Part shown: positions 1,919-60,754 of the stretch, piece by piece
How positions within the stretch are numbered: the first letter of the stretch is position 1
Layout: the number at the start of each line of letters is the position of its first letter
Assembly (NCBI GenBank): GCA_034664005.1
Contig: JAXDIL010000118.1
Coordinates: forward strand, 25,400 to 89,399
Length of the DNA stretch: 64,000 bases
Direction: 5' to 3'
From: Thermoleophilaceae bacterium
GTDB taxonomy: Bacteria; Actinomycetota; Thermoleophilia; Solirubrobacterales; Thermoleophilaceae
Translations under genes and position numbers: made by a program
Notes under the pieces: generated by a model
Databases searched by the model: none
Told to the model about the DNA's origin: nothing
Seen by the model: only the letters and a program-made list of their open reading frames with translations

Positions 1919-1991
1919 GGGGCTATAGCTCAGTTGGGAGAGCGCCTGGATCGCACCCAGGAGGCCGCCGGTTCGAGTCCGGCTAGCTCCA
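1919..1991 (+). tRNA. tRNA-Ala (anticodon CGC)
   Basis: 73-nt cloverleaf folded by hand. Acceptor GGGGCTA/TAGCTCC with the G3:U70 alanine identity pair. D arm GCTC-AGTTGGGA-GAGC. Anticodon arm CCTGG-ATCGCAC-CCAGG with CGC at 34-36. T arm GCCGG-TTCGAGT-CCGGC. Discriminator A; CCA not encoded. Confidence 0.95.
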
Positions 1992-2167
1992 TCGGAAGAG
2001 GACCCGCTCTGGAAGCGGCGTTGCCCGGATGCCGGTCTTAGCGAGCAGACGTTGCAGGCGCGTTGGGGCCGTGGCTATCCCCAATTCCATCCCCGAAACC
2101 TTCCGTCACGGCCTGGGACCCGGCCACCCTGCCTGCTCATTGACGACCTACCTCTCTATTCGTGTAG

Positions 2168-2926
2168 ATGAACCAGAAGCAGCGTGCACGTGCAGAGGCG
2201 TTGATGGAACTGGTGACGTCCCGGCTTCCCGCTGAGTTTGACGTGACCGCGGACCACGACGCCTGGCCATTCTTCGGCTACGCGCTCTTGAGTCGAACGA
2301 CGGGCACGCTCGACTCGGTGTTTCGTCTCCAGCCAACCGAGCGCGGCTCCGACGCGATGACGCTCGTGCGCAGCCTCTACGAGCACATAGTGCACTTCGC
2401 GTGGCTCTCCGCCGACCCGTCGGCCGAACGCATCGGTCAGTGGCGGAAGCATGACCTGACCGAGCGGCTCAAGGCCGACAACGACACACAGTCCGTCGGC
2501 GTCGAGCTCTTCACCCCGGCGCAGCGGCAGAACTTCGAGGCGCAGCGAGATGCACTACCGGGCGCGAACTCGCTCGTGCTCGCGAACCTCGCCGGCGAGG
2601 CCGACGACTACTGGAACGGCAAAGTCGAGGGCCTGCAGTCTCGGCACCAACCGCGCTCGTTTCGGGGGCTCTACGCGACGGCGTACCGGTTCCAAAGCGG
2701 CCTCGCCCATCCTGGCGAGCGCAGCCTCCACCCGGTCGTGCAGGACGTGACCGCAAGACGCAAGCTGGTGAAGGTGGAGGACTCATTCGAAGGCAATGGC
2801 CCGTACGGCATGGCTACGACCGTCTACGCGCTCGGCCTGCTCGTAGCTGAACAGTCGCTCGGCTGGCCGACCAACGCCGAGGTCAACGCCGTCTTCCAAC
2901 GCGGTCGGGGGCTTATCCAGTCCTGA
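2168..2926 (+). CDS. Hypothetical helical protein (weak resemblance to DUF5677-type proteins)
   Basis: 252-aa ORF with coding-like composition. The stretch LVRSLYEHIVHFAWLSADP recalls DUF5677-type helical proteins, from memory only. It is the first gene after the tRNA. Confidence 0.6.
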   Translation: MNQKQRARAEALMELVTSRLPAEFDVTADHDAWPFFGYALLSRTTGTLDSVFRLQPTERGSDAMTLVRSLYEHIVHFAWLSADPSAERIGQWRKHDLTERLKADNDTQSVGVELFTPAQRQNFEAQRDALPGANSLVLANLAGEADDYWNGKVEGLQSRHQPRSFRGLYATAYRFQSGLAHPGERSLHPVVQDVTARRKLVKVEDSFEGNGPYGMATTVYALGLLVAEQSLGWPTNAEVNAVFQRGRGLIQS

Positions 2927-3408
2927 AAGTGGCGGTTCGCCTCCAACCGCGATTCGTTGCCATCGTCCCAGGGCTCCCAGTCCTGCTCCTGCCTGGGCTG
3001 CATCAAGGCCGTGCGCTCGTTGATGGCAACGAACGCCTCCGCGAGCTTGACGTTCGCGAGTGGCGTGGCGACTAGCCACGGTCCCTTCTCTGCGGCGAGC
3101 GCTTTGAGACGGTCGACCAGCTGCTCAAAGCCCAGGTCGTCCTCGCCCGCATCCACCAGCTGTTGGACGATGTCGCGCATCAGCATGCGCTCGCTCGCGA
3201 ACAATCTGAAGACCTGCAGATGATGGCGTCGGACAGCGCTTGCGCACTGACGAATGAGAATCCAGTCGGGTTCTGAGAAGAAGTCGGTCAGCGGTCGAAA
3301 TGCACGGGAGACCTCCCCGGGCTCCAGTGGCTCGTTCTGCCTCGCGTTTGCGCGCCGGACAACCGCCTGAAGGGCCCCTAGGTCGAACGTGGGCGTTCCG
3401 GCGCTCAT
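2824..3408 (-). CDS. Hypothetical protein, possibly 3'-truncated or decayed
   Basis: 194-aa ORF. The first ~160 residues look coding. The last ~33 residues lie inside the convergent gene 2168-2926 (103-bp overlap) and look like out-of-frame read-through. Confidence 0.45.
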   Translation of the reverse strand: MSAGTPTFDLGALQAVVRRANARQNEPLEPGEVSRAFRPLTDFFSEPDWILIRQCASAVRRHHLQVFRLFASERMLMRDIVQQLVDAGEDDLGFEQLVDRLKALAAEKGPWLVATPLANVKLAEAFVAINERTALMQPRQEQDWEPWDDGNESRLEANRHFQDWISPRPRWKTALTSALVGQPSDCSATSRPSA

Positions 3409-3479
3409 AAGCGCATCGTGCGACCACGGCCGGACGCGACGCGCCGGCCGTTGCCGTCAGTGTCGGCACTTACTCTCGG

Positions 3480-4475
3480 ATGCTGATGCCAGAGCAAGTA
3501 CGGCACATCCCTTGGTGGCGATGGCTGCTGGGAGCAGTGACCATCGCCGCTGTTGTCTACGTCGGTGCCGCCGAGAACGTGGCGACGGCCATCGTCGCCG
3601 CCATCGGTATCGCCGCAGCTGTCTTCACCGTCTGGAATCCGTTCGCTGCTCGGCCGCATCCGACCCTCAGCTTGGAACCCGTCGGCAAAGGCGAGACGAC
3701 GCACGTCAGCGTCGGGTCGGCGGTGCGTCCCGTTGACGTCGACGCGGTTGTTGAGGACGCGCGCTCGATAGCCCTCGTGTCGCGCCCGTCGGCCCTGATG
3801 TTCACGATGTTGAAGTACGCCAAGCCCACCGCGGAAGACCACGCGAAGTACGGGGCTGACGTAGAGACGTACGCCGAGGAGGTGCGGTCCTGGGCGGAAG
3901 CCGCTGAGGAGTGGCTCCGCGCTCAGGACTCGGTTCTCCACGCCCGTGTCATCCAGCGCAACTCAAGTTCCGTCGACGCCGAGGACGCCGGCATCTACGT
4001 TCTCCTTCCGCCGGGAACCGAGGAGCTCTCAGACGTCCCTGAGCCGCCTACGCCTCCTGACCGTCCCGCCTTCCCGTTGAGGAAGTCCGCGCTCTCTATG
4101 GCTATGGACCCGTCGCCGCTGAGCGGATATCACTGGCCGCGGGTGAGCCCAGTGGGAATCACGGAGTTCGAGCCGGTTTCGCTCTGGGACCCTGACTACG
4201 AACGGATGCCCGACGGACGCCTGCGCGTCTCCTATCAGCGTCAGCCCGTACGCCACGGCGAAATCGAGCCCACCGGCCGCCCGTTCATGGTCCGGCTTCC
4301 GCCCGGCGAGTGCGAAGCCCGCTGGGAGGTGCATGCCCGAAACCTCTCGCACCATGCATCGGGCAGTTGGACCGTCTCCTGCCAACCCGACTACTCGGGC
4401 GAGGCCATCACGACCTTGGCCGACCTCGAAGCCGCACTCGGCATTGAAGGCGACGACCCCGCCGAGGATGAGTAG
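3480..4475 (+). CDS. Membrane-anchored hypothetical protein (two predicted N-terminal TM helices)
   Basis: 331-aa ORF. The N-terminus WWRWLLGAVTIAAVVYVGAAENVATAIVAAIGIAAAVFTVW is hydrophobic, followed by a ~260-aa soluble domain with no motif I recognise and an acidic C-terminus. Confidence 0.7.
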   Translation: MLMPEQVRHIPWWRWLLGAVTIAAVVYVGAAENVATAIVAAIGIAAAVFTVWNPFAARPHPTLSLEPVGKGETTHVSVGSAVRPVDVDAVVEDARSIALVSRPSALMFTMLKYAKPTAEDHAKYGADVETYAEEVRSWAEAAEEWLRAQDSVLHARVIQRNSSSVDAEDAGIYVLLPPGTEELSDVPEPPTPPDRPAFPLRKSALSMAMDPSPLSGYHWPRVSPVGITEFEPVSLWDPDYERMPDGRLRVSYQRQPVRHGEIEPTGRPFMVRLPPGECEARWEVHARNLSHHASGSWTVSCQPDYSGEAITTLADLEAALGIEGDDPAEDE

Positions 4476-4564
4476 TCAGCGCGGGGCTACGGGGCTGGAG
4501 TCAGGCCCACCCACAGCAGAAACCGGGTACTGGGCGGCAATCTGAGTCCATACTCCGCCTGCAA

Positions 4565-5332
4565 ATGGACAGCACGCCTCTTATCGCCGTCGGCGCCGAC
4601 GCCGCTCCGGCCGGCTGGGCCGCGGCTTGTTTGTACGCCGACGCGCTCACGCCAGGAGAGGCGACTACTTGGGAGACGCGACTTCATCTAGCCGCCACCG
4701 TCGAGGAGTTGGTGGCCATGTGTGGCGACGCCGCTGGGTCGAGGCCTCCGGTGGCCATCGACATCCCCATCGGTTTGCCCGAGACCGTTCGCTACCGGCG
4801 CTGCGACGAACAGGCGCGCGAGCTCCTCGGCGGCCGACGGGATTCGGTGTTCCCACCGCCGGCTCGCTACATGCTCGAAGCCGCCGGCGACTACACCGCC
4901 ATCCGGGAGCTGGTCGCAGCCGAGAAGAAGCGGAACCCAGCAGCTCGCGGTTACAGCGCCCAGGCGGCGGGCATCACCACCAAAGTCAGGGAGGTCGACG
5001 CGTGGGTGTGTGCCCACCCGGAGAGTGAGGCGTGGCTGTTCGAGTGCCATCCCGAGCTCAGCTTCTACGCGCTAAATGACGGCGGGGCCCTGCCGAGCAA
5101 GCACTCGGCTGCTGGGCTAGTTCAGCGATTGGGGCGCATCCGCGAGCTTTTCCCGGATGCCGAGGCTCAACTGGCGGATGGGCCATGGTCGGGCAAGCAG
5201 GCGGCGCCGGCTGACTTTCTCGATGCCTACGGCGCACTCGGCACGGCGCTTGTCTGCGCGCGCCACGACCAAGAAGAGCTCGGCGACGGCGAGCGCGACG
5301 TCCGGGGCGTGCTCATGCGGATGGCGATGTAG
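4565..5332 (+). CDS. DUF429 family protein (predicted RNase H-like fold nuclease)
   Basis: 255 aa. The pattern GADAAPAGW...VAIDIPIGLPE...RRCDEQARELLGGRRDSVFPPPAR...GYSAQAAGITTKVREVD...ECHPELSF...DFLDAY matches the conserved blocks I know for DUF429. Confidence 0.75.
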   Translation: MDSTPLIAVGADAAPAGWAAACLYADALTPGEATTWETRLHLAATVEELVAMCGDAAGSRPPVAIDIPIGLPETVRYRRCDEQARELLGGRRDSVFPPPARYMLEAAGDYTAIRELVAAEKKRNPAARGYSAQAAGITTKVREVDAWVCAHPESEAWLFECHPELSFYALNDGGALPSKHSAAGLVQRLGRIRELFPDAEAQLADGPWSGKQAAPADFLDAYGALGTALVCARHDQEELGDGERDVRGVLMRMAM

Positions 5333-5398
5333 AGGCCCCTCTGGGCCTTGGTGGTCGGGGCGACGGGCTACGCGTGGGTCCGGGACTAACACTCGGTG

Positions 5399-5980
5399 TC
5401 AGGTCCGTACGGCCGCCACCGCTTTGCTCAGCTCGGCCCAGCCCACCGGCCCCCGAGTGTGCCGGTCCAGGAAGCCCATGCCCACGGAGCGCGCCCGGTT
5501 GTCGCGGACCGCGTCGGCGTCGGCGACATAGAAGGCCCACTGGTCGACGTCGAGCGGCGCGTACTCGCTTGGCACCCTGCAGGTGTGGATAGCGAAGACG
5601 AACACGTCCGCCCGCACCTCACGCTCTGTGCCCCAGCCGCGCTTGTCGTCCCAAGAGAGCCCGGTGAGTCCGGTGAAGCGGATGTCGGAGAGCTTGCGCT
5701 GCGCCCAGCTCTGCAGGTACGCCGATGACTTGACCTCGATGCGGGTTCCGTCCGGCGTGAGCACGTCGTAGTTGTCCCACGCCGTCCGTACCGGTTGTTC
5801 GGCCCCGACGGCCTTGGCAACGAGGAACTCCGCGAGCACGCCGCGAACGATGTTGGTGCGGAGGTCGCTGAAGGCGAAGCTCCAGAAATCACGCACTGTC
5901 GTACCGGTCCCGGTGAAGCGCTCGCTGCCGTCGAGCGGGGCGACCTCTGTCGGCTCAAGCCATTCTGGTTCGTCGTCCAC
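5399..5980 (-). CDS. PD-(D/E)xK nuclease-like protein
   Basis: 193 aa. VRDFWSFAFSDLRTNIVRGVLAEFLVAKAV...WDNYDVLTPDGTRIEVKSSAYLQSW contains a D-x(n)-E-x-K core (YD...IEVK) typical of restriction-endonuclease-fold proteins. Confidence 0.7.
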   Translation of the reverse strand: MDDEPEWLEPTEVAPLDGSERFTGTGTTVRDFWSFAFSDLRTNIVRGVLAEFLVAKAVGAEQPVRTAWDNYDVLTPDGTRIEVKSSAYLQSWAQRKLSDIRFTGLTGLSWDDKRGWGTEREVRADVFVFAIHTCRVPSEYAPLDVDQWAFYVADADAVRDNRARSVGMGFLDRHTRGPVGWAELSKAVAAVRT

Positions 5981-6052
5981 GCGCGCCTCCTACGCGGTAC
6001 GGCCCAGAGCGCCTAGCGGGTCAGAACCCATGCACCCAGACACGGCCTCTGC

Positions 6053-7285
6053 TCACTCCTTGCCCGGGGTGTGGATGAAGAAGGTGTTCAGGTCGGCGTG
6101 ACGACGCTCGTCACCGGGCCAGCTGACGGTTGCCCGAAGCTCAGTCTCGGCAGCGGGGTCTTGCCACTCGACGAACTGCTCGTGAGCTTCGAGCGTCTCC
6201 CGCGCCTTCTCAATGATTTCCGTGAGCTCGCGCTGGCGGACGAACATCACGATGGCGAGTTTGGTGTCGCGCCAAGCCGTGTAGCGAAAGAGCTGGTCAA
6301 TCGTCTCCGAGAACCCCTTGGGTCCGCTCCAGAACTTGCACTCGCCAATGAAGAGGCTGCTGCCCTCATAGGAGACGAGGATGTCGGTCTTGCCCTGAGC
6401 GTTGAACGCCTCGGCGGTGGTATGGCCGCGATAGTGGGTGTGTAGGGCCGCGACCAGAACCTGTCGCCGGTCCTCCTCGCCCATTCCTTCGTAGGTGGCG
6501 GGGCTCGACTCCATCTTTTCGCCGGTTGCGCGGATGACCCCGAGGATGTGGTCGAAGACTTCCTTCGCGAGCACGGGTTCCAGCTGGACCGGTTCCTCTT
6601 CGCGCCTGGGCAGCTCGGGCGCCGGCAGTCGCAAGAGCGCCTCGGCGATATAGGTCTTCTCCTGCTGGTCTGGCGGTCCGACTGGCAAGCCCGTGTCGGC
6701 GATGTGCTGCTGATGGCGCTCGACGTGGTCGCGGCGGACACGGATGGCTTGCAGGGCCGTGTTCTTCAGGTCCGCGTTGTGTTGGTCTATGTCGTTGCGC
6801 GACCAGGTGAGGTGTTGCTCGACCTTGCTGGCGAGCTGCTGAGCGTGCGCCGTGATGTTGACCGGCGAGTCTTGGGGGTACTCGATGACGTCGGTGAGCT
6901 CGTGCTCGTGCACCGCCGCCCGCGGTGGGTTCATGCTGAACTGGCTCGCCTGCAGATTGAAGACGCCGTGGTCGCCGTCGAAGGGGATGTGGATGACGAC
7001 GCGGTAGCCGGGGATTAGCGCGCGTCGACCTGGAATCACGGCCCGCCTGAAATCGTGAGAAACGTCGACCTCGACCTGTGCCGGCTCGTCCTGCCACATC
7101 TTCTCCGGACGCAGGACCGGAGGCTCCACGCGGTATCGCTCGGCAAGGGCGTCCGCCCAGGCATCCTCGTCCGCTTGAAGGACGTGCTCGTCCGGAGTCT
7201 TCTGGACATCCTGGGACAAGCGCGCCTTGATGTTCTGAAGCGTGCCGCGCAGGTCGCCCCCGTAGAAGAGCAGGTCGCCGACCAT
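6053..7285 (-). CDS. Hypothetical protein with C-terminal PD-(D/E)xK nuclease-like domain
   Basis: 410 aa. The C-terminal GKTDILVSYEGSSLFIGECKFWSGPKGF...RDTKLAIVMFV has a D...E-C-K motif. The N-terminal ~280 aa has no motif I recognise. Same strand as hsdR, 162 bp downstream of it. Confidence 0.75.
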   Translation of the reverse strand: MVGDLLFYGGDLRGTLQNIKARLSQDVQKTPDEHVLQADEDAWADALAERYRVEPPVLRPEKMWQDEPAQVEVDVSHDFRRAVIPGRRALIPGYRVVIHIPFDGDHGVFNLQASQFSMNPPRAAVHEHELTDVIEYPQDSPVNITAHAQQLASKVEQHLTWSRNDIDQHNADLKNTALQAIRVRRDHVERHQQHIADTGLPVGPPDQQEKTYIAEALLRLPAPELPRREEEPVQLEPVLAKEVFDHILGVIRATGEKMESSPATYEGMGEEDRRQVLVAALHTHYRGHTTAEAFNAQGKTDILVSYEGSSLFIGECKFWSGPKGFSETIDQLFRYTAWRDTKLAIVMFVRQRELTEIIEKARETLEAHEQFVEWQDPAAETELRATVSWPGDERRHADLNTFFIHTPGKE

Positions 7286-7429
7286 GCACGGACCGTACTG
7301 GCGCGTCCCGACGGCTCAGGCGCCCAAAACCACCCCTCCGGACAGGCGCGCAGCAAGCCCCGGTTTACCAGCCGAAGCTCTCTGCGGTGCGGCTGTCCCT
7401 GAGCGGCGTTCATCTCTGCCGAGCCGTTT

Positions 7430-7444
7430 GCCCGGGCGCCGGGC
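7430..7444 (-). terminator. Short GC hairpin just downstream of the hsdR stop (weak terminator candidate)
   Basis: The minus strand reads GCCCGG-CGC-CCGGGC (6-bp stem, 3-nt loop) starting 4 nt after the hsdR stop. There is no U-tract, so the call is weak. Confidence 0.3.
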
Positions 7445-7447
7445 CTC

Positions 7448-10400
7448 CTACCAGGCGTCTATCTCGACCTCGGGCCAGCGTCGATACAGCGTCAGTGCCT
7501 GTTCGAGGATGAGGTCGGTGTAGATGTCAAGGGGCCGGCCTCCGCCGCCGTCGACTCCGCTGGCGGGTGGGTCCGGAAGGTCCCTGCGGTGTCGGCGCAG
7601 GAGACGCTTGATGCGCTTGCGCACTGCCGCCTCAGTGGACTCGTCTGAAGTCCAGTCGACGGTCAGGTCGCTGCGAATCCCCTGGACGAGCTCGCGCGCG
7701 ATGGTCACGAGCTTCGGGTCCGCAGTCCAGTTCTCGGGATTGCCGGCGAGCGCGTCGTAGAACGCCGCCTCTTCTTCCGTGAGTCCCAGTTCCTCGTGAC
7801 GATGGCGGGCCTCGCGAAGTTGTTTGGCAATCTCGACCAGCCGGGCCACGATTTCTGCGGAAGTGATGGTCCGGTTGTCGTAAGCCTGAAGCAGCTCGTC
7901 GATGCGGTCGGAGAAGAGCTTTGCCTGCAGGTGGTTCGACCGCAGCCGGACGCGAACCTCCTCGTCGAGGAGCCGTTTGATGAGGTTGACCGCGAGGTTC
8001 GGGCGTTCGCTGACCTTCTTCGTCACTTCGTCGAGGAACTCATCGGAGAGCACTGAGACCTCTGGGCGTTCCTTGCCGGCGAGCTTGAGCACGTCGACGA
8101 CCTCGCCGGCGGCGAGCCCTGTAGAGATGAACTGCTTGACCACCTGCTCGGCCTCGGGGCTTGCTTGGTCGGTCGGGGCCGCGTACGCGCGGACCTCCCG
8201 GGCAACCGCGCCGAAGAACTCGGCGTCGGTGGCCACCTCCACTGCTTCAGATGTGGTCCCGGCCAGCGCGAACCAGCGGCTGAAGAGCGTGTACTGCCTG
8301 AGGAACTCGGTGGTCGAGTCCTGGTCTTCGAGTAATAGGTCCGAGGCTTCCTCGATGAGTTCGGTGACTTCAGTCGCCGGCTTCGTCTCCCAGCCCGCGT
8401 ACTCGACGCCGTGGAGCATCGCCGCAACCACCTCATGCTTCTCGCGCATGTGCTTGACGGCAACCGCCAGCGGGACCGCGACGTCGTCGACATCTTGCTT
8501 GGCATAGGCGGTCAGGGAGGCACGCAGGTCCTCACCGATGCCGATGTAGTCGACGACGAGGCCTCCCGGCTTGTCACGGAAGACGCGGTTGACTCGGGCA
8601 ATGGCCTGCAGCAGACCGTGGTCCTTCATCGGCTTGTCGACGTAGAGGGTGTGCATAACCGGGGCATCGAAGCCGGTTAGCCACATGTCGCGAACGACAA
8701 CGATTCGCAAGGCTGAATCCGGCTGCTTGTAGAGCTCTTCGAGCTCCTCGCGCTGGTGGCGGGTGCGGCGGAAAGCCGAGATTTCCGGGTCGTCGGTGGC
8801 GGTGGCGGAGATGACCGCCGTGACCGCATCCTCACCTAAGTGGGCCTTGAGCCGTTTGACGAGGTCGACGCAGATGCGCTGGCTGTAGCCGACGACCATG
8901 GCCTTGCCCTCTTGGACCTTGCAGCGCTCGGTGTAATGCTCGGCGATGTCCTTGGCGACGACATCGAGTCGCTCGTCCGTCCCGACGAGTTTCTCCAAGC
9001 GCGCCCACGCGGTCTGAAGCTTGCGGGCGGCGCCTTCGTCCTCTTCGGACAGCACCTCCTCGGCCTCGCGAAGCAGCTCCTCGTCCTTGACATCGAGCGG
9101 GACCACCCGGCTCTCGTAGAAGATGGGCACGACCGCCCCGTCAGCCTCGGCGTCAGAAATGCGGTAGACGGACACGTAATCGCCGAAGGTCAGACGGGTG
9201 TTGCGGTCACCCGCCTCGATGGGCGTCCCCGTGAACCCGATGCGGATGGCGTTCGGGAGCGAGCGCGTGACGTTGCGGGCCAGGTCTCCGTACTGAGTTC
9301 GGTGCGCTTCGTCGGCCATGACGACGATGTTCGCGCGCTCGGATAGGACGGGCATCTGGCTGCGCTCACGGCCGGGGTCGAACTTCTGGATGGTCGTAAA
9401 GACGATGTCACCTGGCGGCCGTCGCAGGAGCTCGTGGAGCGACTCCTCCTTCCGGCCCTCGGTCGGGCCTTTGGGCGGCTCGATACGTTCCGCGCGCTTG
9501 ACCGCTGCGGCGAGGTGTTTCTGGCGCCGGAAGGTCTTGTACAGCTGGTCGTCGAGCTGCTCACGGTCGGTGAGGGCGACAACGGTCGGGGACTCGAAGC
9601 GAGGGTCCTTGCGGAGCTTCGAGGTGTAGAAGGCCATCAGGTAGCTCTTGCCTGAACCCTGGGTGTGCCAAATGACGCCGGCGCGGCCGTCGCCGTTCAT
9701 CGCCGCCCAGGTGGCCTCCAGCGCTTTCTCGACCGCCTGGACCTGGTGGTACTTGGCCATCACCTTCCAGGTCTTGGCGCCATCGGTCTCGAACATCACG
9801 TAGTTGGCGATGAGGTCGAGGAATCGCGCGGGCGTGTAGACGCCTTGAAGCATGACTTTCAGCCCCGTCTGCTTTTTCTCGCCGGGCTGCGGGTCCATGG
9901 TCTTCCACTCGGCGAAGTGCTCCGCCGGCGTTGTCACAGTTCCGACACGGGCTTCGCGGCGGTCGGTGACGGCGATGACCTCGATGAAGCGATAGAGGTA
10001 CGGGATGTCCTGCCAGTAGCCGGCGACCTGGTTGATGACCGCTTGCCCGCCCTTGTCGCCGGGCGCCTTGGCTTCGATTTGGCCCAAGGGGATGCCGTTG
10101 ACAAACAAGAGAATGTCGGGCCGACGCTTCTTCTCCGTTGGACCCGAACCCTGCTCGACGCGGAACTGGTTGACGGCTAGGAACTCGTTGTTGGTGGGGT
10201 CGCCGAAGTCGACGAGCTTCGCTCGGCCGGACTGCTCTTCACCGGAGGAGTCGGTCCAGGTGACGGGCACGCCGAGGACGAGAAACTCGTGAAACGCGTA
10301 ATGGTCGTCGATGAGGACCACAGACGTCGACTCGCGGACGTCTGTGATGACGGCGTCGACCGCCTCATCGGGTAGGTGCGGGTTGAGATGGGCAATGGCG

Positions 10401-10570: not shown

Positions 10571-10574
10571 CCGC

Positions 10575-13363: not shown

Positions 13364-13452
13364 GTCGTCAACCTTCTATTCGATACGGAAGCATCCGGCC
13401 TGTCGGCGGAAGTCAGCCTAACTTGACGAACAGTCGGGATGGGAGGCTCGTC

Positions 13453-14271: not shown

Positions 14272-14325
14272 CTCGGAGCCGGAGCGGTGCGAGGTAGCTT
14301 TCGCCTCCGCTTATCTGTGCGCTGG

Positions 14326-17100: not shown

Positions 17101-17331
17101 ATGGGCAAGGACCAGCACGTCGTCAAGCGAGATGAGGGGTGGGCGGTGCGCGGTGAGGGGAACTCACGGGACACCTCGCTGCATCCCACCCAGGCGGAGG
17201 CGATTGACGCTGGCCGCGATATCGCGCGCAACCAGCACTCGGAGCTGGTCATCCATGACCGTCAGGGACGCATCCGGGATAGCGACTCGTACGGGAATGA
17301 CCCCAACCCGCCGAAGGACCGCCGCCACTGA
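17101..17331 (+). CDS. DUF2188 family small protein
   Basis: 76 aa. MGKDQHVVKRDEGWAVRGEGNSRDTSLHPTQAEAIDAGRDIARNQHSELVIHDRQGRIRDSDSYGNDP matches the DUF2188 pattern. GGAGG lies ~11 nt upstream of the ATG. The track ORF start at 16888 is probably too far upstream. Confidence 0.8.
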   Translation: MGKDQHVVKRDEGWAVRGEGNSRDTSLHPTQAEAIDAGRDIARNQHSELVIHDRQGRIRDSDSYGNDPNPPKDRRH

Positions 17332-17360
17332 GCGCCGGCGGGCTCGCAAGGAGAGAAACG

Positions 17361-18893: not shown

Positions 18894-18943
18894 GCCTCGG
18901 TGGCGCGGTCAAGTTTGGGGATAGAGCCCGCGCCATCCCCAAA
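18882..18943 (+). terminator. Cluster of interleaved hairpins at and after the rmuC stop (terminator or 3' structured element)
   Basis: GAGGCT/AGCCTC (18882-18898) spans the stop codon. TGGCGCGG (18901-18908) pairs with CCGCGCCA (18928-18935). TTTGGGGAT (18914-18922) pairs with ATCCCCAAA (18935-18943). The last two helices interleave. No T-tract follows. Confidence 0.35.
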
Positions 18944-19037
18944 ACCCCCGGATAAGTACGTGGTTCCGTGGGCATTCTCCCGCCGAGGCGCGCAAAGTTC
19001 CGCTTGGTAGAGCGGTTTGAGCCCAACGGGCGCTTAT

Positions 19038-19080
19038 ATCGCACCCAGGAGGCCGCCGGTTCGAGTCCGGCTAGCTCCAT
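19038..19080 (+). repeat. Direct repeat of the tRNA-Ala 3' part (att-like junction, copy B)
   Basis: ATCGCACCCAGGAGGCCGCCGGTTCGAGTCCGGCTAGCTCCAT is identical to tRNA positions 32-73 plus the next base. There is no 5' acceptor strand or anticodon-stem partner upstream, so this is not a functional tRNA. Confidence 0.9.
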
Positions 19081-19114
19081 TAAGGCGCCCCGCGGCGACG
19101 TCTGATCGTCATTC

Positions 19115-22100
19115 TCAGGCCGCCGAGGCAGGCCGACCCGCGAGCGCCTGCTCGGCTCGGGCCAGCAGTGGCTTCGCGCCGAGGTCGGCCAGGATCGTCC
19201 GCGCCTCGTCGATGAAGGGGATCGATTCGCCGGCCCGGTCGGTCTCGAGCAACAGCTCGCCTCGAGCGAGCAGCACCTTGGCCAGCTCGTAGGGGTAGCC
19301 CAGCTCGCGCATTAGCGCGATCGCAGCGTCCAGGCGCTCCTCGGCCGCGGCGATGTCTCCCCGCCTGCCCGCCAGCAATCCCGCGAAGCGCGCGGCCTCA
19401 CCCTGCATCAGGGGCGTCGCCTGCGCGGGAGCGAGCTGCTCGACGAGCTCGACCAGCTCCTCGAGGGCGGCCACGTCCTCGAGCTCCCAGGCGGCCTCCC
19501 CGGCCGCGATGTAGGCGTTGCGACGCGTCTCCGGGTTGGGAACCCGCACCACCTCGCGCAGGATCTCGAAGGCCTCCGCTGTACGCCCGTTCGCGCTGGC
19601 CGCCGCGCCCTGCCCGAGCCTGATCACGTTCCGCACCTGCGTATCCGGGCTCTCGGCGCTTCCCGCCGGTGGGTCGAGCGCGTTGAGCGCGTCGAGCTCG
19701 CCGCGCGCCGCGGCCACGAACGCGTACAGGGCAAACAGCTCCGCGGAGCTGCTGACGTCCTCCGGGTGCTCGTTCAACAGCGGCTCGCAGAGCTCGGCGA
19801 GCTCGTCCCAGCGACCGAGTACGAAGAGGACCGCGCACTTGCCCGCGACCAGCAGCGCCTCCCAGGGACGGTCGCCGCGCGCGCGGGCCGCGGCGTGGCC
19901 GCGGTCGTAGTGCTCGAGCGCGTCGTGCGCGTGATCCGCCCCCAGCAGCATGACCGCAAGGTTGTTGTGGGCCCGCATCACCACCTGCTGCAGATCGTGC
20001 TCAGTAGCCAGGTGGAGGCCCCGCTCGAGCAGCGCCTTCCCCTCCTCGAGACGCGATTGGAAGTTGAGCGTCGTCCCGCGCGTGACAAGCGCTCCCGCGA
20101 TCCGCTCCCAATCCTGGAGCGGCTCGGCGATGACGAGGGCCTCCTGAGTTGCGGCCAGCGCCTTGTCGATGTCATCTCGAAGGAAGTACAAGCGCCCCAG
20201 CTCATGCAGAGCCGCTGCCCGCTCGGCGTCCGGCTCGACCAGGTCGGCGAGCGCGCGCTCCAACAGGCCGACGGCGTCGTCGAGGCGGTCGATGCTCACG
20301 AACACGTCCGCGAGCACCCCGGTCGCGCCCGCAACGGCGGACTTGTTCCCGGCGGCCTCGTACAGCTCAATCGCCGCGTCGAGCCGCTCGCGCGCGGCCA
20401 CCTGGTCGGCGGCCAGCCAGGCGGCGCGCCCGGCCTGCTCGAGCAGCCGGGCCCTCGTCGCGTCGTCCTCGGCGAGCTCCGTGGCCCGGTCGTACGCACG
20501 TTGGGCATCCCGCCCGAGCGCCAGCGAGGCCGCTCGCTGGCCCGCCTCGATGAGGGTGTCGCGCGCCAGCCCGCGGATCTCCCGGACGTCGGCGGCGTCC
20601 GGATCCGCCCGCGCGGCGTCGAGCAGGTGCGTCGCGACCACGTCGGCGAGCTCGCCGGTCTCGCTGCCCCGGACCTCCTGTAGGTAGCGGGCCGCGGCGA
20701 GATGCAGCTCCTTGCGGTCGCGCCGCGCGAGCGTCCCGTACGCGATCGTCCGCAACAGCCCCTGGACGAACGCGAACTGGCCGCGCTCGGACGAGAAGCG
20801 GTCGTCGTTGAAGATCAGGATCTGCTTCGCGACTAGCCCGTGAAGAACGCGCTCGACGTCGGCCTGCGGGCGCTCGACGAGCTCCGCGAGACCCGCCGCG
20901 AAGAACGACTGCCCCAGGACCGCAGCCGCCTGGAGGAGTGAGCGCTCGCCGGCATCCAGGCCGTCGAGCCGCGCCGCTACGAGCGCGTGCAGGGTCTCCG
21001 GGACGTCGAGCTCCTCGATGTCGCCGCGCACGGCGTAGCGCTGGCCCTCCTGGGCGAGCAGGCCGCGGTCGAGCAGCATGCGCACGGTTTCCACGGCGTA
21101 GAGCGGCACACCCTCCGCTCGCTCCAGGATGCGGCCCGCAAGTTCCTCGGGCAGGCCGGGCACGAGCCCTTCGAGCAGCTCGTCCATGTGCTCGTCTGAC
21201 AGCGGCTCGAGCTGGAGGAAGTCCTTCCATCCGGGCCGCATGTCGACCAGCTCCGGCCGGCCGAGCGCGAGGATGAAGATCGGGAACTCAGCGGACCACT
21301 CGAGCAGGTAGTCGAGGAAGTCGAGGAGGCCGGAGTCCGCCCACTGGAGGTCCTCGAAGACCATGACCACGGGGTCGATCGCCGCAAGGCGCTCGAAGAA
21401 CAGCCGCCAGCCCGAGAAGAGGTCGGCGCGGTCCGGTGCGGTTCGGACCTCCAGGCCGAGCAGGTGGGCCAGGCGCGGCTCCACCAGGCGGCGTTCCCGC
21501 TCGTCGAGCACGTACTGCCCCACCGCGTCGTGCAGCTTGGTCCTCGCGACCGTGGGGTCCTCCTCGTCCACTATCCCCGCACGGGCCCGGATCATCTCTG
21601 CGAGCGCCCAGTACGCGACGCCATCGCCGTAGGAGAGACAGCGGCCGCGGTGCCAGAAGACGCGCGCCTGCAGGCCGTCGACCTGCTTGTCGAACTCCCA
21701 CAGCAGCCGCGACTTCCCCGTGCCGGCCTCGCCCACCACCGGCACGAGCTGAGCTCTGTGATCCGCGCGGGTCGACTCGAGCGCGTCCACGATCAAGTCC
21801 AGCTCGCGCTCGCGACCGACGAAGGGTGCCTCGAGCCCGGGCCTGCGTCCGACCCCTCCCATGGTGGCGACCACGCGCAGGGCGGTCCACGTCTTGATCG
21901 GTTGGTCGCGCCCCTTTACCTGGTGCGTTCCGGCGTCCTCGTAGGCGATCGCCGCCTCGGTCGCGGCGCGGGTGACGTCGTCGACCAGCACGGCACCGGG
22001 TTCTGCGATCGACTGCAGGCGCGAGGCGGCGTTGACGGAGTCGCCGAGCACCATCCCCTCGCCCTGAGCCGCGAGGTCGACCGCCGCCGAGCCGGTCAGG

Positions 22101-22594
22101 ACGCCGGCGCGGACCTTCAGGTCGGGCATCCCGGCTTCGGCGCCGAGCGCGCCCACCGCCTGCGTCAGCGCGAGCGCCGCCCTGACCGCCCGCTCCGCAT
22201 CGTCCTCGCGGGCAACCGGCGTCCCCCACACCGCCATGACCGCGTCGCCGATGAACTTCTCGACCGTGCCTCCGTAGCGCTCGATCAGGGTCCGGCTGCG
22301 GTCGAAGTAACGCGACAGCAGCTCGCGGACCTCCTCCGCATCGAGGCGTTCCGAGAGCGTCGTGAAGCCGACCAGATCCGCGAACAGGATCGAGACCAGC
22401 CTTCGCTCAGGGGTGGCCGCAGACCGGCTGGGCGCCGGCTCGACGCCGAGCGCCGTGCCGCACGACCCGCAGTAGCGGTCGCCGGGCGCGTTCGCAGTTC
22501 CACAGCTGGGGCAGCTGAGCTCGAGGGGGCTGCCGCACTGCGAGCAGAAGCGATGCCCGCCCGAGTTCTCCGCTCCGCAAGAACCGCAGATCAT
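19115..22594 (-). CDS. Zinc-ribbon / class III adenylate-guanylate cyclase / AAA (STAND-like) ATPase / TPR multidomain protein
   Basis: N-terminus MICGSCGAENSGGHRFCSQCGSPLELSCPSCGTANAPGDRYCGSCG (double zinc ribbon). Cyclase block RRLVSILFADLVGFTTLSERL...GGTVEKFIGDAVMAVWG. P-loop GEAGTGKS. TPR-like C-terminal half. Start set at ATG 22594 because the track start 22732 would overlap the divergent gene. Confidence 0.85.
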   Translation of the reverse strand: MICGSCGAENSGGHRFCSQCGSPLELSCPSCGTANAPGDRYCGSCGTALGVEPAPSRSAATPERRLVSILFADLVGFTTLSERLDAEEVRELLSRYFDRSRTLIERYGGTVEKFIGDAVMAVWGTPVAREDDAERAVRAALALTQAVGALGAEAGMPDLKVRAGVLTGSAAVDLAAQGEGMVLGDSVNAASRLQSIAEPGAVLVDDVTRAATEAAIAYEDAGTHQVKGRDQPIKTWTALRVVATMGGVGRRPGLEAPFVGRERELDLIVDALESTRADHRAQLVPVVGEAGTGKSRLLWEFDKQVDGLQARVFWHRGRCLSYGDGVAYWALAEMIRARAGIVDEEDPTVARTKLHDAVGQYVLDERERRLVEPRLAHLLGLEVRTAPDRADLFSGWRLFFERLAAIDPVVMVFEDLQWADSGLLDFLDYLLEWSAEFPIFILALGRPELVDMRPGWKDFLQLEPLSDEHMDELLEGLVPGLPEELAGRILERAEGVPLYAVETVRMLLDRGLLAQEGQRYAVRGDIEELDVPETLHALVAARLDGLDAGERSLLQAAAVLGQSFFAAGLAELVERPQADVERVLHGLVAKQILIFNDDRFSSERGQFAFVQGLLRTIAYGTLARRDRKELHLAAARYLQEVRGSETGELADVVATHLLDAARADPDAADVREIRGLARDTLIEAGQRAASLALGRDAQRAYDRATELAEDDATRARLLEQAGRAAWLAADQVAARERLDAAIELYEAAGNKSAVAGATGVLADVFVSIDRLDDAVGLLERALADLVEPDAERAAALHELGRLYFLRDDIDKALAATQEALVIAEPLQDWERIAGALVTRGTTLNFQSRLEEGKALLERGLHLATEHDLQQVVMRAHNNLAVMLLGADHAHDALEHYDRGHAAARARGDRPWEALLVAGKCAVLFVLGRWDELAELCEPLLNEHPEDVSSSAELFALYAFVAAARGELDALNALDPPAGSAESPDTQVRNVIRLGQGAAASANGRTAEAFEILREVVRVPNPETRRNAYIAAGEAAWELEDVAALEELVELVEQLAPAQATPLMQGEAARFAGLLAGRRGDIAAAEERLDAAIALMRELGYPYELAKVLLARGELLLETDRAGESIPFIDEARTILADLGAKPLLARAEQALAGRPASAA

Positions 22595-22646
22595 CGTGTT
22601 CGCAACATACTCGCGGCGACGGGGTTCCGCATAGGATCGCTCCCGG

Positions 22647-24359
22647 ATGAAGGCGTGGGGTTCGGGCCATCGGGAGGTGCTGCGCGTACGCGACCTGCGG
22701 CTCCTGTTCGGGGGCCTCGCCGTGTCCGCCACCGGCTCCTGGGCCTACAACGTCGCCCTGCTGGCGTTCGTCTTCGAGCAGACACACTCGCTGAGCTGGG
22801 TTGGCGCGGCAGGTCTCGCCCGATTCGTGCCTGCGCTGTTGTTCAGCTCCTACGGCGGGGTCGTGGCCGAGCGCTTCGACCGAATTCGGGTGATGATCGG
22901 ATCCGACCTGCTCTGCTGCGCCTGGCAGAGCGGCCTCGCGGTCACGGCCGCACTCGGCGGTCCGGTCGAGCTGGCGCTCGTCTTCTCGGCGCTGACCGCG
23001 ATCTGCAACACGCCCTACAACCCCGCGGTTGCCGCGACGATCCCGGAGCTCGCCGACGAGGACCGGCTCGTGGCGGCGAACGCGCTCAACAGCACCATCG
23101 AGAACCTGGTCGTCGTCGTCGGTCCCGCCATCGGCGCCGTCGTGCTGGCGCTCGGGTCGCCCGCGCTGACGTTCGCCATCGACGCGGCGAGCTTCGCCGT
23201 CTCCGCCCTGATCGTGTCGCGCATCCGGATGCGCAGCCGTCCCGTCGACGTCACCGAGGGCGGCGAGGTCGGCGCGTTGCGGCAAATGGCGGTGGGGCTC
23301 CGGGCAATCACGGAGTCGACCGCGGCGCGGACGCTGGTCGCCTACAGCGTCCTGGTCTCGTTCGTCTACGGGACGGACACCGTCCTGTTCGTGGCCGTCT
23401 CGGACGCGCGGCTCGGGACCGGCGCGGAGGGCTTCGGCTATCTGCTCGCCGGCCTTGGCATCGGCGGCGTGCTCGTCGCCGGGGTACTCGATCGGCTGGC
23501 CGCGTCGGGGCGGCTCGCCCGGCTCATCGTGATCGGGACCGCGCTCTACTGCCTGCCCACGGCACTGCTCGCGGTCGTACACGCGCCGGCGCTGGCCTTC
23601 GCAATCCAGGTGGTGCGCGGGGGGGCGACGCTCGTGGTCGACGTCCTCGCGATCACCGCGCTCCAGCGCGCGGTGAGCTCGGAGTTGATGGCGCGCGTCT
23701 TCGGCGTCTTCTTCGCCCTGGTTCTGACGGCGATCTCGATCGGTGCAGTGATCACCCCACCGATAGTCGACGGCCTCGGGCTCAACGCCGCGCTCGTGGT
23801 GCTCGCCGTGGCCCCCACGCTGCTCGGCCTTGCCTGCTATCCGGTGCTGGCCGCGCTCGACCGCCAGGCCGCCGGTCTGCTCGCGGTCCTCGCGCCTCGG
23901 ATCGCGGTGCTCGAGCGACTGTCGATCTTTGCCGGGGCCGGCCGGCCCGCGCTTGAGCGGCTGGCGTCAGCCGCCGAGGAGGTCGACGTGGCGCCCGGCG
24001 ACGCGATCGTCCGCGAGGGCGAGCCCGCAGAGGCCATCTTCGTGCTCGTCGAAGGCCGGGTCGAGGTGACCTCCCGCGGCGAGGCCGGAGGCGAGCCGGC
24101 GGTCCTGCGCGAGATGGAGCCCGGTACCTACTTCGGTGAGATCGGGGTGCTCGAGGGCATCCCGCGAACGGCGACAGTGACCGCCATCGAGCGCTGCCAA
24201 TGTCTGCGGATCGAGGGCGACGCCTTCCTGGCGGCGATCACCGCGGGGCCGACGGCCACCACGTTGCTGGAAGACGCCCGCTCGCGGTTGGGTCGGACGC
24301 ACCCGTCACGGCGCGTCACCTTCGAGCCGCCGGTGGGCGCCCCCACTGGCGAGCGGTGA
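22647..24359 (+). CDS. MFS transporter fused to a C-terminal cyclic-nucleotide-binding (CAP-type) domain
   Basis: 570 aa. About 12 hydrophobic helices, then LSIFAGAGRPALERLASAAEEVDVAPGDAIVREGEPAEAIFVLVEGRVEV...GTYFGEIGVLEGIPRTATVTA, the FGE...RTA cNMP-binding signature. Confidence 0.85.
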   Translation: MKAWGSGHREVLRVRDLRLLFGGLAVSATGSWAYNVALLAFVFEQTHSLSWVGAAGLARFVPALLFSSYGGVVAERFDRIRVMIGSDLLCCAWQSGLAVTAALGGPVELALVFSALTAICNTPYNPAVAATIPELADEDRLVAANALNSTIENLVVVVGPAIGAVVLALGSPALTFAIDAASFAVSALIVSRIRMRSRPVDVTEGGEVGALRQMAVGLRAITESTAARTLVAYSVLVSFVYGTDTVLFVAVSDARLGTGAEGFGYLLAGLGIGGVLVAGVLDRLAASGRLARLIVIGTALYCLPTALLAVVHAPALAFAIQVVRGGATLVVDVLAITALQRAVSSELMARVFGVFFALVLTAISIGAVITPPIVDGLGLNAALVVLAVAPTLLGLACYPVLAALDRQAAGLLAVLAPRIAVLERLSIFAGAGRPALERLASAAEEVDVAPGDAIVREGEPAEAIFVLVEGRVEVTSRGEAGGEPAVLREMEPGTYFGEIGVLEGIPRTATVTAIERCQCLRIEGDAFLAAITAGPTATTLLEDARSRLGRTHPSRRVTFEPPVGAPTGER

Positions 24360-24380
24360 GGTGCCGCAGTCGACGAGGTC

Positions 24381-24402
24381 GGTTCGAGTCCGGCTAGCTC
24401 CA
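24381..24402 (+). repeat. Direct repeat of the tRNA-Ala T-arm/acceptor 3' end (copy C, shorter)
   Basis: GGTTCGAGTCCGGCTAGCTCCA is identical to the last 22 nt of the tRNA. The bases just upstream (GAGGTC) resemble the tRNA (GAGGCCGCC) with an indel. The downstream CTGAAGAGGG resembles the TCGGAAGAGG that follows the real tRNA. Confidence 0.8.
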
Positions 24403-24441
24403 CTGAAGAGGGCGTGAGCAGCTCGACCACGAGTGGGGCAG

Positions 24442-25794
24442 CTAGACCCGAAACCTGACCTTGGTCGAGCCCTGTGCGGTCGTCGGTGGGGTGTTGTTGC
24501 CGTCTGCCCTGACACGGTTGACGTACCTGCCGGTGCGCGCGTTCCGCCAAATCCGGGTGGTGACCCTGTAGGTCCTCGTCGCCCCGGCCGCGAGCGTGCC
24601 CACTTGCCAGACGCGCTTACCGGGGGTGAGGCTGCCGCCGGCGCGGGTCTTGAACCTGGCGCCCTTGCGTAGGCGGTCGGTCACTGAGACTCCAGAGGCG
24701 GCACGATCGCCGCAGTTCTTCACGACGATGGTCCATCTGACCAAGCCGCCTTGGCGCACGCTGCGGCGGCTGGCGCTCTTGGTGACGCACAGGGTCGTCG
24801 TGTCGGCGGCGCCAGTGGGTCCCGCGGGACCGGTCGGACCGATCGGACCGGTCAGGCCGGTCAGCCCGGTCAAACCCTGGATCCCGTCAAGGCCGTCAGC
24901 GCCAGTCTCACCCTGCGCACCGGCGCCGCCGTCAGCGCCAGTCTCACCCTGCGCGCCGGCGCCGCCGTCAGCGCCAGTGGCGCCGTCAGCGCCGTCAGCG
25001 CCGTCAGCGCCGGCCGGACCGGCAGGACCCGCCGGACCGGGAGGGCCCTGGACGACCTGCGGCTCGGCGCACGCCGTGCGGATCGCGGTCGAGGCCAGGG
25101 TGATGGCGGCGTCGTCGGACAGGAGTCGCCCATTCACGCGGCTGTTCGCCCCCACGGTGATGCCGGCGTCGGCCATCATCGTGCCGGCGAACTTCGCGGT
25201 CGCGCCGATCGTCGTGGCGCCGTTGACTGCCCAGAAGACGTTGCAGGCGTCGGCGCCGCCGACCAGCTTGACCTCAGCGGAGGCACCCATCGACAGCGCT
25301 CCGCCGATCTGGAAGATGAACACGGCGTCCTCGTCGCCCTGAGCGTCCAGCGTCATCGTGCCGCTCGCCGTGAAACCCATCGCGTCACTCGTGCCGTACA
25401 CGCCGGGTGTGAATGACGCGCCCGCAAAGTTAACGCTCCCCATCGGAGCGCTTTCACGCAGCACCGCGTCTCCGTATGCGAGATCGAGACTGTGCTTGGC
25501 CGCATCGGCCTGGGCGTCGCCCAGGTGTGTCTCTCCGAGCACGATCGGCGGGCTGTCGCCGGCCAGGACCGAGGCCGGGAAGCTGCCCAAGTTCTCGGAC
25601 ATGGCTGTGGCGCCGTTGCTCGTGACCGAGGGCGCCAGAACCGAGTAGGCCTCGGCGGCGCCGAGGTTGACCCTGGTAGCCGCCAGGGCTGGCCCCGCGG
25701 AGGCGCACGCAAGCAGCGATGCGGTGAAGACTGCAAGGAACAGACGACGGAAGGACAGCTTGAAAGGGGGCATACGGGTCCATCGACAGCTCAC
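24442..25794 (-). CDS. Secreted ice-binding-like (DUF3494) / collagen-like Gly-X-Y repeat / DUF11-like surface protein
   Basis: Signal peptide [27 protein letters not shown]3494-like block ([27 protein letters not shown]...[25 protein letters not shown]). About 79 residues of GXY repeats ([19 protein letters not shown]...[13 protein letters not shown]). C-terminal [40 protein letters not shown] is DUF11-like. Confidence 0.8.
24811..25047 (-). repeat. Collagen-like Gly-X-Y coding repeat region with internal tandem duplications
   Basis: A 36-bp unit GCCAGTCTCACCCTGCGC(A/G)CCGGCGCCGCCGTCAGC occurs twice in tandem (24901-24936, 24937-24972, one mismatch). It is followed by GCCGTCAGC 9-mers (24982-25008). 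Confidence 0.9.
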
Positions 25795-25910
25795 GGGGCG
25801 GGCCCCTACCTCAAAGTGAGGAACGAACTACGGTACGACGCCTCAGCGAAGGACGGTTCCGCTCGCTCTCGAGCAAAAACGACGCTGGCCGCACACATTC
25901 GCATCCCCGC

Positions 25911-25955
25911 ATCGCACCCAGGAGGCCGCCGGTTCGAGTCCGGCTAGCTCCATCG
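25911..25955 (+). repeat. Direct repeat of the tRNA-Ala 3' part (copy D, distal boundary of the array)
   Basis: ATCGCACCCAGGAGGCCGCCGGTTCGAGTCCGGCTAGCTCCATCG is identical to tRNA positions 32-73 plus 3 downstream bases (45 bp, the longest copy). It abuts the stop of the M28 peptidase gene. Confidence 0.9.
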
Positions 25956-60745: not shown

Positions 60746-60754
60746 CCTGGGCCG

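Follow-up and report, generated by a model that had tools for sequence, protein, structure and literature searches.

Why should a transfer RNA (tRNA) gene in the chromosome of an uncultured soil actinobacterium be followed, on the same strand, by three partial copies of its own 3' end? The question is raised by a stretch of 64,000 nucleotides (nt) from a Thermoleophilaceae bacterium (NCBI GenBank assembly GCA_034664005.1, contig JAXDIL010000118.1, positions 25,400 to 89,399 of the forward strand); this whole stretch is called the window, and coordinates given without a contig name refer to it. An earlier note, made from the sequence alone, had proposed that the copies delimit a tandem array of insertions. 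Our analysis points in the same direction: we consider it quite probable that 1992-25955 consists of three units placed in tandem behind the 3' end of tRNA-Ala(CGC), an array formed in a Thermoleophilaceae chromosome by site-specific accretion and subsequent decay. In support of the array, relatives differ in content at this place, the unit next to the tRNA (segment 1) is foreign and the repeat is tRNA-derived; identical relatives, a flank-like composition and a dispersed repeat, the three outcomes that had been named beforehand as speaking against it, are not what we found.

Four co-oriented copies of the tRNA-Ala 3' end

ARAGORN and Rfam agree that the window has one tRNA gene, an intact tRNA-Ala(CGC) at 1919-1991 on the + strand (Rfam tRNA, 67 bits). 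The 22-mer formed by its last 22 nt, GGTTCGAGTCCGGCTAGCTCCA, has four exact matches, all on the + strand, at 1970, 19058, 24381 and 25931. The chance expectation derived from 100 dinucleotide-preserving shuffles was 0.00, and no extra match appeared in the window when up to three mismatches were allowed. A complete tRNA-Ala with exact same-strand copies of its 3' end, as described in the earlier note, was thus borne out by ARAGORN, Rfam and the 22-mer search, and the repeat is local and tRNA-derived, not dispersed.

Extended to their full length, the matches define copy B (19038-19080, +), which comprises tRNA positions 32-73 and one downstream nt (43 bp), copy C (24380-24402, +) with tRNA positions 51-73 (23 bp), and copy D (25911-25955, +) with tRNA positions 32-73 followed by TCG (45 bp). 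The lengths previously given for B and D stand, that of C, 22 bp, has to be corrected to 23 bp with a start at 24380. Reading of the flanks confirmed that B and D begin at tRNA position 32, the first base of the anticodon loop (stem 27-31/39-43), and that C begins in the T arm, at position 51, which belongs to the 5' strand of the T stem. In the 22 nt that precede copy C no leftover tRNA similarity was seen, the alignment score being equal to that of shuffles; a decayed full-length core before copy C was therefore ruled out.

The copies divide the region into segment 1 (1992-19037, ~17 kb, between the tRNA and copy B), segment 2 (19081-24379) and segment 3 (24403-25910). In terms of attachment (att) sites, segment 1 now has its attL core in the 3' part of the tRNA (1950-1991) and its attR core in copy B; copy C is the joint of segments 2 and 3, and copy D is the attR core lying farthest out. 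No duplication is seen in the DNA that separates the copies. An independent contig of the Joint Genome Institute (JGI), L137, crosses the B junction at 100% identity, two further contigs (L001 and L002) contain copy C and/or D, and L001, which is 99.4% identical to the window, has both; because these contigs show the same junctions, B, C and D are not an assembly artefact. L137 (7361-21422) and L001 (20719-32323) are from one JGI sample (3300044809) and overlap at 20719-21422, and from their different identities to the window, 100% and 99.4%, it follows that at least two close strains coexist there.

Segment 1 is a foreign defence island missing from a relative

The closest species-level genome is a Thermoleophilaceae metagenome-assembled genome whose peptidase is only 61% identical at the amino acid (aa) level, for which reason we used metagenome relatives for comparison (at least 120 contigs, sampled by exact matches to the 42-nt core only). 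The metagenome-assembled genome itself was uninformative as evidence for an empty site, as it has no tRNA-Ala near its peptidase gene.

In one of the metagenome contigs, L120, the GGDEF gene and the intact tRNA-Ala are followed at once by segment 2, and segment 1 is missing exactly between the repeats. In the window the GC content of segment 1 is 0.652, as compared with 0.713-0.725 in core chunks of the same size, and its tetranucleotide distance to the right-hand chromosome is 0.32, as compared with at most 0.13 for such chunks.

The genes, which were called by GC3 frame bias and scanned against Pfam, NCBIfam, PADLOC and PHROGs, make the cargo (2168-18893) a defence island without a recombinase. 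A type I restriction-modification (R-M) system, recognized by Pfam and encoded on the - strand by hsdR (7448-10570), hsdS (10575-11774) and hsdM (11771-13363), is accompanied by PDC-S54 (6053-7285, -; PADLOC 2.4e-118), by a DUF2188 gene matching PDC-S16 (16888-17331, +; PADLOC 2.5e-36), by an RmuC-type gene (17361-18893, +; PADLOC 5e-47) and by a Hypoth_Ymh/HEPN-like gene (14326-15645, -; Pfam) with a weak PADLOC HEPN match. Pfam also identified DUF5677 (2168-2926, +), the first gene after the tRNA, and DUF429 (4565-5332, +). For the several unannotated open reading frames (ORFs) of the segment, PADLOC, PHROGs and NCBIfam yielded defence-candidate matches only. Differences in hsdS length between contigs turned out to be differences in gene calling, the DNA being identical. 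The PDC-S54 protein (410 aa) has an end-to-end PADLOC match and no match in Pfam or NCBIfam; its gene lies directly downstream of hsdR, as though it were an accessory to the type I R-M operon.

The DUF5677 protein has a 100% match named 'Thermoleophilaceae bacterium' by its source. An 80%-identical homologue (L148 9353-10744, on a 1.27-Mb contig) is the first gene after a tRNA-His, and Pycsar-like genes (PycTM, cyclase) and McrBC genes come next; within 10 kb of it there is no repeat of the tRNA-His. A 70% homologue (L149 680-4380) adjoins an operon of the cyclic oligonucleotide-based antiphage signalling system type (CBASS; SMODS/SAVED-TIR). The family seems to be tied to defence islands, and possibly to their tRNA-proximal edge. 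As a way to the parent element of segment 1 these homologues were rejected: they lie in other defence islands, with no tRNA-Ala core and no integrase.

From the positions of the repeats the junctions of the rearranged forms can be predicted. A chromosome without segment 1 would read tRNA 5' half, core and TTAAGGCGCC, a segment 1 circle would read GGGCGCTTAT, core and TCGGAAGAGGACC, an empty site would read tRNA 5' half, core and TCGTCAACGC, and one further predicted junction with the tRNA 5' half and core has the continuation CTGAAGAGGG.

Conserved arms beside the cores

The left non-coding arm of segment 1 (1992-2167, +) has a hairpin, TTGGGG (2063-2068)...CCCCAA (2079-2084), and two tandem ATCCCCRAWWCC motifs, which span 2077-2100. 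The right non-coding arm (18894-19037, +) likewise contains a hairpin, TTGGGGAT (18915-18922)...ATCCCCAA (18935-18942), a third ATCCCCAAAACC motif and the box TTCCGCTTGGTAGAGCGG (18998-19015). The 12-mer ATCCCCRAWWCC, a pattern derived post hoc from these same sequences, has three exact matches in the 64 kb, all on the + strand, at 2077 and 2089 in the left arm and at 18935 in the right arm. Judged by these motifs, the ends of segment 1 look like the two halves of a single attP.

The right arm aligns block for block with an arm found in other contigs, which we call family 3. The family-3 arm is ~200 bp long and is conserved at 75-87% in at least 14 contigs, beside unrelated cargo. It has a GGGCAC...GTGCCC hairpin at its distal end, then three ATCCNCGG direct repeats with ~10 bp spacing, then the palindromic box TTCCGCTCTCTAGAGC, and CGCATCCCCGC directly before the core. 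Direct ATCC repeats at intervals of ~10 bp, together with a palindromic box, are known from DNA to which proteins bind. Copy D retains only the proximal 67 bp of such an arm (25844-25910, +; GGTTCCGCTC..CTCGAGC..CGCATCCCCGC, directly before the copy), and this truncated arm is 80-87% identical to the flanks of tRNA fragments in nine contigs (L024, L037, L049, L056, L068, L081, L110, L134 and L136).

Segment 2 has been exchanged between lineages

The match between L120 (2050-7376) and the window (19030-24381) amounts to 90.7%, and the homology with L120 and with a second contig, L142, which continues beyond it, stops at window position 24381, at most 2 bp from the start of copy C. In the two genes of the segment, which encode a cyclase and a major facilitator superfamily (MFS) transporter, the identity at third codon positions between the window and L120/L142 is 0.84-0.85. 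The corresponding values are 0.61 for the GGDEF gene on the left flank (L120) and 0.71 for the SBP3 gene on the right flank (L142). With 0.84 against 0.61-0.71, the block between B and C must have been shared between the lineages long after the flanks diverged. The comparison shows segment 2 as apparently exchangeable DNA, which, as far as sequence can tell, was recently exchanged in spite of its core-like composition. In both lineages the segment lies directly 3' of tRNA-Ala: copy B is the former tRNA end beside segment 2, and the intact tRNA holds the corresponding place in L120.

The two genes are divergent. Gene 1 (19115-22594, -) encodes, according to Pfam, a protein with zinc-ribbon, adenylate-guanylate cyclase, AAA_16 and TPR domains; its start was inferred from the gene calls in L001 and L140, and the longest ORF reaches 22732. 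The protein is 89-90% identical to those of L120 and L142, and an exact look-up of its sequence found no record. The product of gene 2 (22647-24359, +; Pfam) is an MFS transporter fused to a cyclic-nucleotide-binding domain and is 91% identical at the aa level to its counterpart in L120. The same gene pair adjoins a GMC oxidoreductase gene in L140 (a 2.8-Mb contig) and L141, with no tRNA or tRNA fragment within 10 kb; the third-codon identity of the window to these two is 0.60-0.67. The cyclase/AAA/TPR family is multi-copy in the genome, and a paralogue with ~65-68% nt identity is found in the window at 60754-61800.

To the right of the joint with segment 2 in L120, at a distance of ~110 bp (~7480-7520), we noticed GATATGAATGGGCACCAG. 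It corresponds to the initial 17 nt of the family-3 arm, the remainder of which is missing, as is a core. This suggests a deleted att site there.

Segment 3 and the flanks

Segment 3 has one gene (24442-25794, -), which by Pfam encodes a secreted Ice_binding-like/collagen-repeat/DUF11 protein. The gene is also present in the 99.4%-identical strain L001, where the distance from C to D is 1559 bp as opposed to 1550 bp in the window (9 bp longer) and the protein is called 4 aa shorter (446 vs 450 aa). L120 and L142 lack segment 3 and have other cassettes in its place (MpsC, HTH, sigma factor and others); from the SBP_bac_3 gene at 28.5 kb onwards they are again syntenic with the window.

On the right, the array is followed by a PA-domain M28 peptidase gene (25956-27941, -; Pfam), whose stop codon directly abuts copy D, as the earlier note had it. 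As the ancestral neighbour on the right, M28 is supported by one other lineage, L119, where an M28 homologue likewise follows the last tRNA fragment, and not by L129, L093 and L142, which have other genes between the array and the SBP3 gene. The left flank is a HAMP/GGDEF sensor diguanylate cyclase gene (3-1871, -; Pfam GGDEF 1.3e-38 and HAMP), the C-terminus of which is beyond the window edge. Its L120 orthologue is 72% identical at the aa and 78% at the nt level, and orthologues with 66-75% aa identity precede tRNA-Ala in ~24 contigs among the matches listed.

An integrase is present beside the core in relatives, not in the array

In the Pfam scan of all 99 ORFs of at least 110 aa in 1992-25955, 37 families were matched; the 25 of them that are listed include no integrase, resolvase or transposase, and any unlisted match is weaker than E ~3e-8. 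A tblastn search with the integrase of contig L042 gave no match in the window, a custom integrase hidden Markov model had no match at E<=10 in the six frames of the full 64 kb, and PHROGs detected no integrase; the rest of the window is also without one. Since no integrase, excisionase or transfer gene was found in segments 1-3, the integration mechanism is one that we infer from the att architecture and from relatives.

L042 encodes a 403-aa tyrosine integrase (PF22022/PF00589/PF02899) after an intact tRNA, and the start of the same gene is seen in L062 and L064. Related tyrosine integrases (PF00589) lie beside the tRNA or the core in L073, L131, L028, L124 and L143-L146, and for the L042-type family there are over 1000 homologues, many of them 85-90% identical. 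In L143-L146 the integrase gene lies 146 bp after a 43-44 nt fragment, not after an intact tRNA; it follows that the cores of units already in place can serve incoming elements too, in agreement with the accretion model (PMC5704250). L144 has a complete 3.66-kb unit of this kind, consisting of a fragment, the integrase, three genes and a fragment. The arms beside L042-type integrases carry CCTGCAAA motifs and belong to arm families other than family 3. In the variable loop, T stands for C in the cores that adjoin L042-type integrases as well as in one tRNA-Ala(CGC) from an IMG/VR contig (L143-L147; AGGAGGTCGCC). This T variant is a natural tRNA allele of other hosts and could trace the element side of a junction.

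tRNA-Ala(CGC) is a variable site in many relatives

The 42-mer core was found as a fragment outside a tRNA in ~45 of ~120 contigs, among the matches listed, and the upstream flanks of these core fragments fall into recurring arm families. L025 has the tRNA and three fragments at spacings of 1.5, 0.8 and 1.1 kb; further arrays of tRNA and fragments were seen in L069, L133, L059, L024, L111, L119, L049, L096 and L101. Twelve complete repeat-bounded units (0.7-8.4 kb) in nine other contigs were scanned with Pfam, and no integrase family was detected in any of the twelve. Their cargo consists of accessory genes, such as those for an AI-2E transporter, BTAD/LuxR regulators, hydrolases, methyltransferases and a sulfatase, and one regulator/hydrolase cassette occupies differing array positions in L059, L019 and L049. 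In viral contigs neither the 42-mer core nor a family-3 arm motif was present, and the single 22-mer match there belongs to an intact tRNA.

How the array may have formed

We suppose that the array was built by repeated site-specific integration, of the tyrosine-integrase type, into the tRNA-Ala gene. In each event the incoming attP core would rebuild the tRNA, and the old 3' end would be moved outward and kept as B, C or D. An early element would have left D with its arm remnant and would now be reduced to one gene, the block with the cyclase and the MFS-cyclic-nucleotide-binding fusion would have come next, bounded by C, and the 17-kb defence island would have arrived last, in the then-intact tRNA, displacing copy B. 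This order is supported because the composition of segment 1 is unameliorated, the segment is absent from L120 and its arms are intact; for the same reasons we agree with the earlier note that the type I R-M segment is the newest. Segments 2 and 3 would be older units, of which cargo and scars are left.

Because none of the three units encodes a recombinase, we regard them as decayed, putatively cis-mobilizable elements similar to cis-mobilizable elements (CIMEs). From its sequence, segment 1 would fit the definition of a CIME: it has no integration or transfer genes, and it has putative att sites with identical 42-nt cores and shared arm motifs at both ends. Segments 2 and 3 appear to be more decayed, with a 23-nt right core and no arms in segment 2 and a truncated right arm in segment 3. 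To move again, a unit would depend on an integrase encoded elsewhere in the genome or brought by an incoming element, and segment 1 would be the sole plausible candidate for such movement. In all this, it is the action of an integrase, the sequence of events and any mobility at present that we infer, as distinct from what we observe, namely the repeats, the unit boundaries, the missing integrase, the lack of segment 1 in a relative, the recent exchange of segment 2 and the conserved arms.

It must be noted that a number of observations weigh against this interpretation. Apart from the missing integrase, excisionase and transfer genes, no excised circle or attP junction was seen. Among the relatives, a sample biased in that it comprises exact matches to the 42-mer core from a listing of limited length, we did find the partial occupancy that the earlier note had anticipated (L120 without segment 1); a fully empty site with the order GGDEF-tRNA-M28 was found in none, and M28 is the right neighbour in one other lineage only (L119). 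Windowed composition, in which segment 1 is clearly deviant, does not set the other two segments apart, or does so only marginally: segment 2 (GC 0.718, tetranucleotide distance 0.157) is indistinguishable from core, and segment 3 (GC 0.694), which has collagen-like repeats, is marginal, with a distance of 0.34 compared to a maximum of 0.325 in core of the same size. At its ends segment 2 has only 34 bp and 20 bp of non-coding DNA, which leaves no room for arms, and the ATCCCCRAWWCC pattern of the segment 1 arms is, as mentioned, post hoc. L120 has segment 2 without any C copy on the right; either C was deleted there, or the C of the window is of another origin. Copy C itself may have arisen by deletion from a longer copy and not by a T-loop crossover. 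In L049 and L119 the short copies of the core are family-3 arms in which internal deletions extend into the core, and those in L096 and L144 are mutated full-length cores; with the other short copies at this site being deletion derivatives or mutated cores, a separate integration of the T-loop type would be no more than one possible origin of C.

Some of these points would also suit another history, which we consider unlikely: segment 1 alone would be an insertion of the present day, segments 2 and 3 would be chromosomal DNA of long standing, and C and D would be the footprints of older elements lost by excision or deletion, and not the boundaries of the genes that they enclose today. The core-like composition of segment 2 and its lack of non-coding arms agree with this, as do the conserved two-gene cyclase/MFS module away from any tRNA in L140 and L141, the absence of a C copy beside segment 2 in L120 and the truncated arm of copy D. 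However, the third-codon identity of segment 2 to L120/L142, 0.84 as opposed to 0.61 and 0.71 in the flanks, then requires a recent exchange of this block alone, and the homology block ends at most 2 bp from C, with other genes in L120 and L142 at the place of segment 3. A different history again would see in the site a cassette platform and not a graveyard, with integrase-less cassettes inserted and excised in trans, in an integron-like manner, by an integrase encoded elsewhere (e.g. of the L042 type). That all twelve complete units lack an integrase, that the arm is 75-87% conserved beside unrelated cargo, that one regulator/hydrolase cassette is found at different array positions and that a highly conserved integrase family adjoins the same core would be in keeping with such a platform. 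We think it has a small chance of being right, since neither excised circles nor empty junctions were observed, the arms at L042-type integrases are of the CCTGCAAA families and not of family 3, many arms are truncated or internally deleted, as decay predicts, and the differing array positions are also explained by newer elements accreting at the tRNA. The corresponding general proposal, that tRNA-Ala(CGC) of Thermoleophilia (Solirubrobacterales and relatives) is a tRNA-anchored integron-like gene-capture platform where integrase-less cassettes, each with a ~200-bp arm and a 42-47 nt core, are shuffled in trans, and of which the window's array would be one example, seems to us improbable too, if slightly less so; the present data fit decay and accretion at least as well as an actively shuffled platform.

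One could also ask whether the copies are recombination scars at all, and not a dispersed repeat, a functional RNA module made of the arm and the tRNA-like 3' end, or a local duplication. The conservation of the arm over ~200 bp, with a hairpin, might be taken as a hint of an RNA; yet RNAalifold returned a covariation term of +0.65 with double changes in only 2 of 26 pairs, an Rfam scan for an arm RNA found tRNAs only, and the arm has the features of protein-binding DNA, so that an RNA was rejected. The copies are identical to the tRNA and to nothing else, they are co-oriented and all downstream of the gene, and the DNA between them is unduplicated. We consider this explanation hardly credible, and retain site-specific accretion followed by decay as the most probable origin of the array.

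Relation to known systems

Tandem accretion of islands at a tRNA gene is a well-established phenomenon; what is unusual here is that none of the three units has an integrase of its own. A three-step model of integration, decay to a CIME and accretion was described for elements such as ICESt1/CIME of Streptococcus thermophilus, in which integration and transfer genes are lost and attL and attR are kept; tandems arise when a new element enters an att site belonging to a resident one, and the result is an array bounded by repeats of the target-gene 3' end (PMC5704250). The array in the window resembles these in being bounded by direct repeats and in the loss of integration and transfer genes. It differs in its host, a high-GC actinobacterium (Thermoleophilia), in its target, tRNA-Ala(CGC), and in having no partner integrative and conjugative or integrative and mobilizable element in the window. 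In addition, both arms are preserved in segment 1 only, the decay of segments 2 and 3 goes further than in a textbook CIME, and mobilization is here putative.

In Dehalococcoides, several tandem islands follow a single small RNA gene (ssrA) on its downstream side, and each is delimited by a repeat of the 3' end of that gene, with a conserved sequence upstream of each repeat; some islands are without an integration module and were proposed to be cis-mobilizable, and the region is a strain-variable part of the genome (PMC3146451). The tandem, repeat-bounded arrangement, the conserved upstream sequence and the lack of an integrase in some units are common to both systems. The Dehalococcoides islands, on the other hand, rely on DsiB, a serine recombinase, and have a 20-bp repeat taken from the transfer-messenger RNA T loop, whereas here we have to do with the tyrosine recombinases of relatives and with 42-47 nt from the anticodon loop.

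Classical tRNA islands and the actinomycete integrative and conjugative elements (AICEs) of the pSAM2 type integrate at the 3' end of tRNA genes, with an identity block that begins in the anticodon loop and with short direct repeats in the arms, and they encode int, usually xis, rep and tra, beside att. The site and the anticodon-loop block are the same in the window, whose arms likewise have short direct repeats, and segment 1 has the atypical GC content and defence cargo. The position 3' of a tRNA with a 3'-end repeat and the sporadic presence (L120, L142) are those of a tRNA-integrated island, but an int gene beside att, near one end, is found in none of the three segments. An AICE was rejected, as int, xis, replication and FtsK/TraB-like families were absent from the Pfam scans of the region. 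We also rejected an integron, as the gene upstream of the tRNA is the GGDEF sensor gene and the window has no integrase, and a prophage or phage satellite, as the sole PHROGs match was a family of unknown function for DUF2188.

The region would account for the way in which a type I R-M defence island and a module for cyclic-nucleotide signalling came into the genome of this uncultured soil actinobacterium. It also singles out tRNA-Ala(CGC) as a strain-variation hotspot throughout Thermoleophilia, a class whose mobile elements have had almost no genetic study. Parts for a site-specific integration tool in these bacteria could come from the conserved att arms and from the abundant integrase family adjacent to the core. 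The prevalence of integrase-less repeat-bounded units raises the question whether they are decay products or are mobilized in trans.

Other features of the locus

Outside the array and its flanking genes, the remainder of the window is ordinary chromosome, with genes for a molybdopterin dehydrogenase, glycosyltransferases and ABC transport. Many relatives (L038, L069, L133, L041, L064 and others) have a second tRNA-Ala-like gene in reverse orientation, ~3 kb upstream of the tRNA and beyond the GGDEF gene. It has 10-13 mismatches to the CGC gene, and its position lies to the left of the start of the window.

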